Part shown: piece by piece, positions 19,209-53,971 of the stretch
Position numbering within the stretch: position 1 is the first letter of the stretch
Layout of the letters: each line of letters begins with the position of its first letter
Source of the DNA: Escherichia phage APCEc01
Length of the DNA stretch: 64,000 bases
Sequence record: NC_029091.1
Direction: 5' to 3' (one strand)
Program-made: the position numbers and the translations under genes
The notes under the pieces: generated by a model
Databases searched by the model: none
Seen by the model: the letters and a program-made list of their open reading frames with translations, nothing else
Told to the model about the DNA's origin: nothing

Positions 19209-19291
19209 GCTCTAAAATGTGGATCGGAATATGGTTGCTTAGTATCCCAATGATTTGTATAATATTTTCAATTGTGTTGAGGTACTTATGA
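19205..19291 (+). CDS. Micro membrane peptide (28 aa), below the ORF-track cutoff
   Basis: ATGA coupling. MSSKMWIGIWLLSIPMICIIFSIVLRYL is a single TM helix. Confidence 0.45.
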   Translation: MSSKMWIGIWLLSIPMICIIFSIVLRYL

Positions 19292-19398
19292 AAATTGCAC
19301 TTCTTATTGTACTAAGAACAATTTGTGATACGGGTTTTTACATTGCATGTTCGTTCACTGGAACATGGTTGGCTTTAACATATTTTAATGTAATTTAA
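19288..19398 (+). CDS. Micro membrane peptide (36 aa), below the ORF-track cutoff
   Basis: ATGA coupling. MKIALLIVLRTICDTGFYIACSFTGTWLALTYFNVI. Confidence 0.45.
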   Translation: MKIALLIVLRTICDTGFYIACSFTGTWLALTYFNVI

Positions 19399-19400
19399 TT

Positions 19401-19430
19401 GTTTACAACAAGGTAGGATTATGGTATAGT
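19401..19430 (+). promoter_or_regulatory. T4-type early promoter within a stem-loop
   Basis: GTTTAC, 18-nt spacer, TGg + TATAGT. GTAGGATTA/TAGTCCTAC imperfect inverted repeat. Confidence 0.75.
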
Positions 19431-19458
19431 AGTCCTACTGAAACATGAGGAACACAAA

Positions 19459-20182: not shown

Positions 20183-20189
20183 TTTATAC

Positions 20190-20222
20190 AGGCCTATTAA
20201 GTTAGGCCTTTAATTTATTTTT
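20190..20222 (+). terminator. Terminator-like hairpin after ndd
   Basis: AGGCCT...AGGCCT palindromic 6-bp stem followed by a T-rich tract. Confidence 0.55.
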
Positions 20223-20234
20223 GAGGTAATTAAA

Positions 20235-20381
20235 ATGGTAGCATGGATTATTGCATTGCTGTGTTGGTCGTTTTTATTCGTTAACACTTTAGTTACAGGC
20301 GAAACAACAGTATTTCAACAGGCCGTATCACAAGGTACCTTAGCGGTCTTAGCTCTTCTTAACGTGTTAAAAGGCGAGTAA
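20235..20381 (+). CDS. Small membrane protein (48 aa), below the ORF-track cutoff
   Basis: GAGGT SD. MVAWIIALLCWSFLFVNTLV... is hydrophobic. This is the region where T4 has ac/stp. Confidence 0.5.
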   Translation: MVAWIIALLCWSFLFVNTLVTGETTVFQQAVSQGTLAVLALLNVLKGE

Positions 20382-20521
20382 TGATTAAGAAAATCTTAGC
20401 AGGAGCCTTCGGGCTCTTGTTGTTGCTTACGGTTCTGTACTACGGTGTGATGTTTGGACTAATCCAAGTAGTGCTTTTCATTTCAGATGTTATAATGGTT
20501 ATTCGTTCATTAATATGGTGA
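20381..20521 (+). CDS. Small membrane protein (46 aa), ac position
   Basis: TAATG coupling. MIKKILAGAFGLLLLLTVLYYGVMFGLIQVVLFISDVIMV... Lies immediately upstream of gene 52. Confidence 0.5.
   Translation: MIKKILAGAFGLLLLLTVLYYGVMFGLIQVVLFISDVIMVIRSLIW
20470..20496 (+). promoter_or_regulatory. Possible MotA-type middle promoter for gene 52
   Basis: Imperfect MotA box AGTGCTTTT, then a 12-nt spacer, then TATAAT. Two mismatches to the box consensus. Confidence 0.35.
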
Positions 20522-20525
20522 AAAT

Positions 20526-52292: not shown

Positions 52293-52625
52293 ATGTCTGA
52301 AGTACAACTCCCAATTCGTGCTGTTGGTGAATATGTCATTCTGGTTTCTGAACCCGCTCAAGCAGGTGATGAAGAAGTTACAGAATCAGGACTTGTGATT
52401 GGTAAACGTGTTCAAGGTGAAGTTCCTGAACTATGTGTAGTTCATTCTGTAGGTCCTGATGTTCCTGAAGGTTTTGTTGAAGTCGGTGATTTGACTCCAC
52501 TACCAGTTGGACAAATTCGAAATGTTCCACATCCATTTGTGGCTTTGGGACTTAAACAACCTAAAGAAATTAAACAGAAATTCGTAACATGCCACTATAA
52601 AGCTATTCCGTGTCTTTATAAGTGA
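52293..52625 (+). CDS. 31: Co-chaperonin gp31 (GroES analogue)
   Basis: 110 aa. Almost identical to remembered T4 gp31 ([34 protein letters not shown]...[11 protein letters not shown]). Confidence 0.96.
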
Positions 52626-52632
52626 TATAAAT
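52625..52632 (+). promoter_or_regulatory. Late promoter TATAAATA upstream of rIII
   Basis: Exact consensus immediately after the gene 31 stop. Confidence 0.6.
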
Positions 52633-52749
52633 AACTATATGAAGAGAACACTCTTCTAAGCGGTAGCCTACAACTGAGAGACTTGTCGAAAGAAGGTGAA
52701 ATTCAGACGAACGTGGCTACTAAATATTATCTCGAATTGAGAATTTAAA

Positions 52750-52998
52750 ATGATTAAACAATTACAACACGCTCTTGAACTGCAACGAAACGCATGGAAT
52801 AACGGTCACGAAAACTACGGCGCGTCGATTGATGTTGAAGCCGAAGCACTGGAAATCCTGCATTATTTCAAACATCTGAACCCGGTACAGGCAGCTTTGG
52901 CTTCTGAACTGGAAGCAAAAGATGAACTGAAATATGCTAAGCCTTTGGCTTCTGCAGCTCGTAAAGCAGTACGTCATTTTGTTATTACCCTTAAATAA
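52750..52998 (+). CDS. rIII: rIII lysis-inhibition accessory protein
   Basis: 82 aa (same as T4). Lies after gene 31. Helical. Confidence 0.8.
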   Translation: MIKQLQHALELQRNAWNNGHENYGASIDVEAEALEILHYFKHLNPVQAALASELEAKDELKYAKPLASAARKAVRHFVITLK

Positions 52999-53295
52999 GT
53001 TTTAGGTGATTCGCTACCTTAAGTGCGGCTAGAAAATCGAGGAGCCGTCGAACTGTCTGATTAATGATTTGCGAATCATTATAGTTTTAAGGCCCCGGCA
53101 GTTTTACGGTGTACCTCTTGAATGTATTTTGTACTATCACGCGTCAGAAAAAGGTTATCTGTCTAAGTCGTGGTTGGTATGATGACGGGTTTATGGTTAT
53201 CCTGTCGGTAAATATTCAAAACCTAAGTACCCCTTTGAGGGCTTTCGCAGGCAATGCCAATAAGTCCTGCATTTTCATTTAAAAGAGAATTTATA

Positions 53296-53472
53296 ATGGC
53301 AAAACAAGTTAAAGCAAAGAAAGCAGTTGAAAAGAAAGTTGGTGATTCTAAACGCGCTGGCTACAAGCGTGGGTCGAACTCTCGTATCAATCAAACTGTT
53401 GAGAAGATCATGCGCCGAGCACGTGCGGTTCTTCGAGATGATGCTTCTCGTTTTGGAAAGGTTGTTGCATAA
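53296..53472 (+). CDS. Highly basic small protein (58 aa)
   Basis: MAKQVKAKKAVEKKVGDSKRAGYKRGSNSRINQTVEKIMRRARAVLRDD... An in-frame upstream ATG at 53254 is possible. Followed by a strong terminator. Confidence 0.55.
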   Translation: MAKQVKAKKAVEKKVGDSKRAGYKRGSNSRINQTVEKIMRRARAVLRDDASRFGKVVA

Positions 53473-53477
53473 TTTTA

Positions 53478-53499
53478 GGGAGACTTCGGTCTCCCTTTT
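53478..53499 (+). terminator. Intrinsic terminator
   Basis: GGGAGAC-TTCG-GTCTCCC followed by TTTT. The hairpin is identical to the one after gene 32. Confidence 0.85.
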
Positions 53500-53531
53500 G
53501 TGCGTTTAGGGCGGAAAAAGTTTAAAAAGAT

Positions 53532-53560
53532 GTTTACTCTCCTGTAGGATGTGTTACTAT
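53532..53560 (+). promoter_or_regulatory. T4-type early promoter (TATAGAC family)
   Basis: GTTTAC, 17-nt spacer, TGt + TACTAT. Confidence 0.7.
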
Positions 53561-53602
53561 AGACTTGTACCACCTAATCAATAAAACAACCTGGAGAACA
53601 AA

Positions 53603-53971
53603 ATGAAAATCAATCTGAACTCATACATCAAATGTAAAGACCATGATGGTTATAAAGCTATCGAAATTAAAGAATTCCAGTGGATGTTATACAAAGAGCA
53701 ATTTGAGTTCGTAGGTTGTATGACCCCTGAAGGTCCTTCTGATGATTTCTCTTGGAAAATTGTGTTAGCAAACTTTTTCACAGGTGACACATACGAATTA
53801 AAAACTATTATTACCGGTAAAATTCGTTCAGAAACATATGTTGACGAAGAAACTGGTTACTCTGAAGATGTTACATGGTATCAAAATGGACGCATTACCG
53901 CAGATAACCTGATCGAAAAAATGAAAGCCAAAGGTGTTTTAAATTTAGACAATTGGATTAAAGTTGCATAA
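53603..53971 (+). CDS. Hypothetical protein (122 aa)
   Basis: GGAG SD; promoter-proximal. Confidence 0.65.
   Translation: MKINLNSYIKCKDHDGYKAIEIKEFQWMLYKEQFEFVGCMTPEGPSDDFSWKIVLANFFTGDTYELKTIITGKIRSETYVDEETGYSEDVTWYQNGRITADNLIEKMKAKGVLNLDNWIKVA

Follow-up and report, generated by a model that had tools for sequence, protein, structure and literature searches.

What does the stretch of DNA between rIII and gene 30.9 do in Escherichia phage APCEc01 (NC_029091.1)? In the window analysed here (the whole 64,000-nt stretch of this genome, one strand), this gap spans positions 52999-53295, from the rIII stop to the 30.9 start. An earlier sequence-only reading found no open reading frame (ORF) of 60 or more amino acids (aa) in it, which is correct: only a 37-aa TTG, a 57-aa GTG and a 39-aa minus-strand frame are present, and the first two have no match in PHROG or Pfam. 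Comparison of related phages indicates that the gap encodes, on the gene strand, a non-coding RNA that folds and is conserved. Its first module, designated A, is with near certainty homologous to ToxI, a 36-nt repeat RNA that binds and neutralizes the endoribonuclease ToxN of type III toxin-antitoxin (TA) abortive-infection systems (ToxIN). Because module A copies one ToxI unit, the phage probably carries a decoy against ToxIN. We give a probability of about 60% to the reading in which module A is a ToxN decoy within a structured intercistronic RNA, whose other modules are probably cis-acting.

A ToxI unit directly after rIII

Module A (AGGTGATTCGCTACCTTAAGTGCGGCTAGAAAATC, + strand, 53004..53038) was recognized from its plasmid and phage matches and from a conserved helix. 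A blastn comparison of the gap with 5,426 E. coli genomes revealed 76 matching places in 53 genomes, 72 of them on plasmids, and PLSDB contained 210 places on 71 plasmids from eight genera (Escherichia, Salmonella, Klebsiella, Pectobacterium, Lelliottia, Hafnia, Serratia and Yersinia); in both searches the matches were confined to query positions 1-44. The plasmid matches were, in every case examined, tandem arrays of 4-13 copies of a 36-nt unit, which end 50-100 nt upstream of genes annotated as 'type III toxin-antitoxin system ToxN/AbiQ family toxin', with a terminator between array and gene. Over 35-44 nt, module A is 87-94% identical to the arrays on Escherichia, Klebsiella, Salmonella, Pectobacterium and Enterobacter plasmids, and every position of 53004-38 is found in some genuine ToxI variant.

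The core helix of module A is formed by 53012-14 with 53025-27 and 53016-17 with 53023-24, with a loop at 53018-22 and an AAAU at 53034-37. The helix has 5 bp and a bulged U; all of its pairs (100%) are kept across 14 plasmid and phage units, between which CG/UA/AU and GC/AU swaps occur. The crystal structure of ToxI is a pseudoknot with a triplex, and the comparison made here covers the core helix. Module A differs from the E. coli/Klebsiella plasmid units, and from those of phages 7-11 and XT32, only by one compensatory swap (C:G to U:A) and by the length of a T-run. The phage alleles track plasmid alleles: a GATACGC type in loci L034 and L039 corresponds to Enterobacter plasmids (94%), and a UGC/GCA type in L027 matches the E. 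coli/Klebsiella ToxI type. The form present in T4 and T2, GGAGATTCACTGCCTTAGTGTGAGCTAAAT, is a diverged homologue of module A, with the helix kept through two pair swaps. There is no toxN beside module A, the flanking genes being rIII, 30.9 and 30.8; it is therefore a mimic and not a TA locus. The last codons of rIII, AAA TAA, contain a further AAAU at 52993-52996, where ToxN may process module A on its 5' side.

With a 37-nt query the unit was detected in 104 phage records and is annotated in only one of them, phiTE, as 'pseudo-ToxI, weak antitoxin to ToxN', a feature with which module A shares 91.4% identity. The value is 94% for the single unannotated units of Salmonella phage 7-11 (Moazamivirus; L240:500-560) and E. 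coli phage XT32 (Kuravirus; L242:497-575), each of which has one complete unit with GAAAUUC before it and an intrinsic terminator directly after it. Klebsiella Sugarlandvirus PWKp9S (L241:500-575) has two units within a transfer RNA (tRNA) cluster. Since complete units stand alone in unrelated phages, the single ToxI unit is a recurrent, unannotated phage element. Weaker, partial matches to the unit were also seen in Vibrio, Acinetobacter and Serratia phages. In phiTE (L237:115-210), the pseudo-ToxI of 1.5 units runs into sequence resembling the 3' half of a tRNA (GGTTCGAACCC...CACCA), which, together with the locations in tRNA clusters, hints that tRNA-processing contexts may express such mimics.

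If module A acts as a decoy, its anti-ToxN activity, predicted here from homology, would come into play when host transcription is shut off, the labile ToxI decays and ToxN is freed. An abundant phage transcript would then provide a pseudoknot unit resembling ToxI, which ToxN itself might trim at the two AAAU sites (52993-96 and 53034-37). The phage unit would re-sequester ToxN and weaken abortive infection, at least where toxIN is low-copy or its allele matches, and a repeat array could also expand from this single unit. Of the modules described below, BC, D, E, F and G may keep an untranslated stretch of 300 nt folded and thus resistant to nucleases and Rho, and a final hairpin, a U-tract and occlusion of the Shine-Dalgarno (SD) sequence may set the expression of 30.9. 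In phiTE, the pseudo-ToxI is expressed during infection and, once expanded, suppresses ToxN so that the phage escapes (PMC3475682); a 2017 paper on the T4 family named phiTE as then the sole phage with an understood escape route (PMC5449768).

Several observations weigh against such a role. Of the related T4-type loci, about half have module A; RB69 has none, and the remainder of the gap is retained where the module is missing. Only one unit is present, with no repeat in the gap and no second copy in the 64 kb, and the TCGAGGAG that comes next bears only a faint likeness to the beginning of another unit. The distance from the upstream AAAU to AGG is 10 nt instead of 4 nt, and any processed unit would therefore be about 41 nt (the interval between the two AAAU) in place of the 36-nt unit. 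No dedicated promoter or terminator was found by scans on either side of module A, and for five of the six other modules the function is unexplained. From the literature, phiTE with 1.5 units is still aborted (efficiency of plating about 1e-8) and needs 4.5-5.5 units to escape (PMC3475682); T2, T4 and T6 are strongly restricted by plasmid-borne E. coli toxIN despite their diverged module A, RB69 without module A is restricted less, and the known anti-ToxN factor of T4 is a protein, TifA (PMC9391042).

Conserved stem-loop modules of the gap

The gap is present in 771 phage records, and the locus was recovered via rIII from 47 IMG/VR contigs and several GenBank phages. Among 20 close relatives, its mean pairwise divergence was 0.074 at the assigned helix positions and 0.099 at unpaired ones, against 0.263 (rIII) and 0.268 (30.9) at third codon positions by the same measure, that is, about three times slower than the flanking synonymous sites. 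In comparison with the VR20/VR26 group, third positions differ by 53% in 30.9 and by 32% in rIII, and the gap by only 5-9%. These rates indicate that purifying selection on the gap is about as strong as on non-synonymous sites. One-nucleotide indels among the close relatives disrupt every reading frame of the gap.

Compensatory changes among related phages support seven stem-loop modules on the + strand, namely A, BC, D, E, F, G and a weak SD-occluding hairpin. All of them are single-copy, and their order is shuffled among genera (for example, E-A-140-nt module-F-G' or F-E-D), suggesting that they fold and function independently. A reading of the gap as dispersed repeats was discarded, the modules being unique in the 64 kb. 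Invariant G:U pairs (two of them in BC), as well as newly arisen ones, fit the + strand only and thus identify the element as a + strand RNA. The sequence-only reading had called the gap hairpin-rich; the hairpins do exist, whereas the folding energy of the stretch as a whole is ordinary (z = -0.72) and stands out only at 53037-53119 (z = -2.55; -1.73 for the minus strand).

The latter region coincides with the BC domain (53039..53117, + strand), which in the minimum free energy (MFE) and RNAalifold predictions forms a long, irregular helix that contains a conserved internal loop of 15 nt and the apical hairpin B. Its pairings are 53039-42/53114-17, 53044-48/53106-10 and 53050-57/53097-104, and a GGAG at 53041-44 is buried in the helix. 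RNAalifold recovers BC unaided; 99.1% of the cells of its 25 pairs are paired, and five pairs have changed on both sides versus 1.3 +/- 0.8 in shuffled and 0-1 in slid controls, although the sequences are related by descent and all shuffle controls for covariation in this work call for the same caution. Two inverted repeats had been reported here, and both are exact: TGATTCGC (53007-14) with GCGAATCA (53071-78), and TAATGATT (53062-69) with AATCATTA (53074-81). The second forms hairpin B, which has a UGCG loop. The first, proposed as a competing pairing, is at chance level (about 0.6 complements of 8 nt are expected per 300 nt, by our estimate), and hairpin B is kept in relatives without module A, so this pairing is dispensable. 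Hairpin B and its 3' flank (53065-53092) also contain TGATTTGC and TTTAAG, 14 nt apart, words which in the ToxI unit read TGATTTGC-TACC-TTTAAG; they may be the remnant of a degenerate second unit or a product of chance.

Domain D (53133..53179, + strand; RNAalifold) consists of an outer stem UACUAUCA/UGGUUGGUA, an inner stem of CAGA (53145-48) with UCUG (53158-61) and a conserved internal loop CUAAGUC. The inner stem is changed to CAGC/GCUG in loci L007 and L024, and the outer one, as read from the sequences, to GCUCUA/UAGAGC in L024, L031 and L044. T4 has no D, and many relatives have a structured module of about 140 nt in its place (window positions ~53122-53176; L013:1885-2021, L033:1760-1896 and L034:1791-1929). 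In these relatives, RNAalifold predicts 38 pairs for this ~137-nt module, 17 of them with compensatory changes, including a hairpin with a GNRA tetraloop, and there are long invariant single-stranded runs (GCUAACGGUGUGCAACAGAU). The module is single-copy in each genome, lies always in the rIII-30.9 gap and has no Rfam match at E <= 1 in the scanned loci; it is a candidate for a new class of structured RNA. The gaps of L027 (1755-1782), L043 and L034 contain a further covarying hairpin found in some relatives only, CCCAC-[CAUG|CUCUG|CUUUG]-UGUACG-[CAUG|CAGAG|CAAAG]-(G/A)UAAC.

Module E (53177..53225, + strand) includes a 3+3 bp hairpin with a bulged G, formed by the GACGGG/CCTGTC stem that was noted earlier (53184-89/53201-06), as well as the loop UUUAUGGUUAU and conserved flanking sequences, GUAUGAUG and GUAAAUAUUCAAAACC. 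No other module is as widespread: covariance model R1 found one + strand copy in 40 of 47 related loci, of which 38 lie in the rIII-30.9 gap and the remaining two (L045 and L046) in a cassette of the phi92 type. In the seven loci that have no 30.9 homologue, the model gave no hit at E <= 1, and E is unique within the 64-kb window. Across 31 distinct sequences, 87% of the cells are paired (68% after shuffling), 35 cells have changed on both sides (13 after shuffling), and GC/AU/UA swaps occur at four of the six pairs.

The phi92-type cassette occurs in phi92-like Justusliebigvirus (phi92, PD06, muut, arall and others), where the whole T4-type gap lies inside a tRNA cluster (L045:1294-1644; L215, phi92:395-745), and the ATG of 30.9 is joined there to the final ~27 rIII codons. 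A direct repeat of 13 bp, TTTATTGGAGATT, borders the insert on both sides and takes in the first 8 nt of tRNA-Gln; the related phage PaulScherrer (L214:385-410) has the corresponding empty site. By its arrangement, the insert looks like an integrated, circularly permuted mini-circle of ~340 bp.

Alignments place F (53227..53248, + strand), a small GC-rich hairpin (53231-34/53238-41), inside a conserved GUACCCYUUGAGGGCUU. Its stem variants (CCCU/AGGG, CCUC/GAGG and GCU/AGC) were read from the sequences without a formal count, and in several genera F sits right after the rIII stop codon. RNAalifold predicts an alternative pairing of GAGGGCUU with 53262-69, which covariation does not support. Hairpin G (53247..53270, + strand) is built on the GCAGG/CCTGC stem described previously (53247-51/53266-70) and has 5 bp, a 14-nt loop with the motif CAAUAAGU and then the U-rich AUUUUCAUUU; it was not called by the terminator scan. 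The stem changes from CAGG/CCUG to CUGG/CCAG in L021 and L035 and has a G:U pair in L019, distant genera have longer stems at this position (GGGAGC/GCUCCC and GGGAAC/GUUCCC), and stems equivalent to G followed by U-rich tracts are present in all lineages. Finally, the MFE fold shows a weak hairpin (53271..53298, + strand) of AUUUUC (53271-76) with GAGAAU (53285-90) over the SD of 30.9 (AAGAG, ~53283-87; start codon at 53296), where distant relatives have CUCC...GGAAGA; this hairpin may occlude the SD.

Neither 72,556 plasmids nor 5,426 E. coli genomes contain, at E <= 10, a counterpart of BC, D, E, F, G, the CCCAC hairpin or the ~140-nt module, and BC, D, E, F and G are for this reason taken as mainly cis-acting. 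For E, a hairpin pattern gave 120 random hits and no homologue in metagenomes, a stricter pattern only seven random single hits in 185,579 species genomes, and E does not accompany pseudo-ToxI in other phage families. Since the conserved loops suggest specific partners, a role in trans or as decoys may also be considered for these modules.

The other features ascribed to the gap fared unevenly. CTGTC[TG] indeed occurs three times in the gap (53053, 53159 and 53202) versus 19 times in the whole 64 kb, and CT?TAAGT three times (53018, 53163 and 53223) versus 13; the expected count is 0.06-0.09 per 297 nt, and this enrichment test is post hoc. The gap is less AT-rich than its surroundings only marginally, because its GC content of 0.404 (window mean 0.379, sd 0.031) is at the 77th percentile of 297-nt windows and equal to that of the two flanking genes. 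Rfam gave no match at the gathering threshold in the window and only noise in 52600-53700 at E <= 10, a result that is uninformative on ToxI because the Rfam copy used misses genuine ToxI arrays too. A search for tRNA and transfer-messenger RNA found none in the window or in the scanned rIII-locus relatives; L045 and L046 are tRNA clusters. A long-range closure of the gap (53000-08 with 53219-28) was rejected, as it is not conserved in T4.

The locus and the competing explanations

The source phage is a Mosigvirus (RB69-like, T4-type), with Shigella phage JK36 and its kin as the top DNA matches (98%). The + strand order is cd, 31.1, 31, rIII, the gap, 30.9, a strong terminator, an early promoter and 30.8; the rIII-gap-30.9 arrangement is also found in T4 (gap of 244 nt) and RB69 (263 nt), with no annotation between the two genes. 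The upstream cistron, rIII (52750..52998, +), encodes a lysis-inhibition accessory protein (PHROG 1457, E = 7.6e-43; annotated rIII in relatives). The downstream cistron, gene 30.9 (53296..53472, +), encodes a basic 58-aa protein (PHROG 1427, function unknown, E = 1.7e-30), which has no relative in Pfam or PDB; its divergence by codon position is typical of coding sequence. An in-frame upstream ATG at 53254, used in some records such as T4T, would lengthen gp30.9 to 72 aa, but it is not conserved in frame among close relatives, and the 58-aa form is therefore the real one.

Promoter and terminator scans, together with a T4 early-promoter pattern, found no promoter in the gap at the scan threshold; the sole weak candidate, TTTTAC-17-TATTTT (53102-30), is not kept in T4. 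A late promoter, TATAAATA, lies upstream of rIII (52626-33), with more promoters further upstream, and the gap is probably read through on the + strand within the rIII-30.9 message from these promoters. An intrinsic terminator follows 30.9 (53478-53499), and beyond it lies a T4-type early promoter (-35 at 53532-37, -10 at 53555-60). Two more stretches of the window have no ORF of at least 50 aa on either strand, 19209-19458 (250 nt) and 20183-20525 (343 nt), near T4-type early promoters at ~18889 and ~19401.

The phage is a recombinant at this locus. Gene 30.9 and the final ~70 nt of the gap match the T2/T4 type almost exactly (98% at third codon positions), rIII and the preceding part of the gap belong to the Mosigvirus type (rIII third positions only 66% identical to T4), and the breakpoint lies between modules E and F (53220-53472 versus 52750-53220). 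Public annotations of the gap, in ATK47, H10, H37, H69 and H85 among others, disagree with one another and are probably spurious. Examples are an 'ori type 2 repeat' (ATK47, L001:2074-2083, 10 bp), a '1,4-alpha-glucan branching enzyme GH-13' and hypothetical proteins of 26-37 aa.

The alternative that survives best, which we consider unlikely but serious, is that the whole gap including module A is purely a cis-acting leader or attenuator for the rIII-30.9 message and that the likeness to ToxI is a recombination relic. Such a leader could protect the 3' end of rIII, block Rho loading, provide processing sites, and control gp30.9 through hairpin G and the SD, perhaps with autoregulation. A structured leader or attenuator for the basic protein had been proposed from the sequence alone; a conserved structured + strand RNA is indeed present upstream of gp30.9, whereas the ToxI-like 5' module was overlooked. 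For the 3' part this role is plausible, because the U-rich tract after the last hairpin can pair with the SD of 30.9, and every lineage has such a tract and a CUCC or UUUUC segment able to do so. The position between rIII and 30.9 is fixed in 38 of 38 T4-type loci with 30.9, and E gave no hit at E <= 1 where 30.9 is lacking; the gap has no promoter of its own, and module A is dispensable in many relatives. However, a purely cis-acting role is difficult to reconcile with the retention of a full ToxI unit including its tails and AAAU, the compensated helix, or the match of the variants to plasmid alleles of the likely hosts; with unit, helix and host-matching alleles all kept, selection for ToxN recognition is hard to avoid. 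In addition, the ToxI unit stands alone in unrelated phages, and the loops of E and BC and the single-stranded flanks are conserved in sequence beyond structural need.

A lower probability is assigned to the spacer being an anti-defence RNA island, a shuffled array of independent decoy or regulatory RNAs among which pseudo-ToxI would merely be the first to be recognized. E may mimic the antitoxin of another system of the ToxN/AbiQ family, and the 140-nt module (with its GNRA loop) and BC may bind other host or phage factors. In the form of this reading that is about equally improbable, several or all of E, BC, D, the 140-nt module and the CCCAC...GUAAC hairpin would be freed from the transcript as independent trans-acting decoys or small RNAs, each against a different RNA-binding defence or factor of the host. 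The modules are self-contained, shuffled and variably present among genera like accessory cassettes, selection on their unpaired positions is strong, the phi92-like tRNA cluster has acquired the T4-type cassette as a whole, and E loosely recalls a type III antitoxin unit (GGUAUGAU..., hairpin, ...UAAAU, ~42 nt). Against an island stand the plasmid and genome searches, in which module A alone has a counterpart, the random nature of the E pattern hits and the absence of E beside pseudo-ToxI in other phages; discrete small transcripts are also without evidence.

An element acting at the DNA level, such as a replication origin, a recombination hotspot or a protein-binding array, is very unlikely. 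The 'ori type 2 repeat' of ATK47 is an unsupported annotation of 10 bp, and the breakpoint inside the gap, with 30.9 and the 3' end T2-like and rIII Mosigvirus-like, and the arrival of the cassette in phi92-like phages via 13-bp homology would be in line with recombination at this site. However, the G:U pairs would be C-A mismatches on the minus strand and the + strand folds better, the T4 origins oriA, C, E, F and G map elsewhere (oriC near rI.-1; PMC3016281), and the gap contains no iterons or tandem repeats. A decayed gene or neutral junk is hardly credible: although two frames are open for 37-57 codons and some annotators call small ORFs here, the gap is conserved (divergence of 0.074-0.099 versus 0.26-0.27 at flanking third positions), its frames are broken by indels and have no PHROG or Pfam match, and tblastn with 3,583 neighbouring open frames from all loci found only frames of the same locus, split across reading frames. 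The reading that we favour thus remains a ToxN decoy, module A, set in a largely cis-acting RNA.

Meaning and relation to known systems

Among abortive-infection systems, ToxIN serves as a model, and the target studied in most depth is T4. To our knowledge, TifA is the sole described counter-measure of T-even phages to ToxN, and the pseudo-ToxI of phiTE the sole described RNA mimic. In the searchable literature, where coverage of subscription papers is incomplete, we found no description of a ToxI-like element or of an rIII-30.9 spacer RNA in T4-type phages; new in this sense are the conserved single ToxI unit in T4-type and other phage families, its site directly after rIII and its embedding in a multi-hairpin RNA. 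If the decoy reading is true, phages in nature would commonly use RNA mimics of type III antitoxins, which would then be no mere laboratory escape route, with carriers among many T4-type phages as well as Kuravirus, Moazamivirus and Sugarlandvirus. It would be readily testable by removing 35 nt, and could account for differences in host range on strains with toxIN plasmids, a point relevant to therapeutic coliphages. T4 itself holds a conserved structured RNA of ~250 nt with no assigned function, and its relatives hold the unclassified 140-nt fold.

The modules of the gap resemble the PeSL cassettes of RB49 and phi1 in being intergenic stem-loops of T4-type phages with modular shuffling (PMC2839356). 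PeSLs are dispersed repeats with a strong sigma-70 promoter, whereas the gap modules are single-copy and without a conserved promoter. Transfer by small circles, as invoked for PeSLs (PMC2839356), is in line with the circular permutation of the cassette inserted in the phi92-like phages.

TifA (the product of T4 gene 61.4) and Dmd (PMC9391042) share with module A the presumed class of target, a host TA ribonuclease (ToxN in the case of TifA), but they are proteins encoded at a separate dmd-tifA locus, whereas module A is an RNA. The plasmid ToxI RNAs of pECA1039, pMB9_2, pU90-1 and pPA21A have in common with module A the 36-nt unit sequence, the helix and the A-rich 3' AAAU. In genuine ToxI, 4-13 units lie in tandem just upstream of toxN, under a promoter of their own and with a terminator; in the phage a single unit stands without toxN, and its 5' AAAU is displaced by 6 nt. 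The closest parallel is the pseudo-ToxI of Pectobacterium phage phiTE (Blower et al. 2012, PMC3475682; non-coding RNA in JQ015307), which like module A is intergenic, on the gene strand and built on the same core helix. It belongs to an rV5-like phage and comprises 1.5 units, in contrast to the one unit directly after the rIII stop in a T4-type phage. Unlike pseudo-ToxI, module A is embedded in a conserved multi-hairpin RNA of ~300 nt upstream of 30.9, from within which it would exert its predicted decoy activity.

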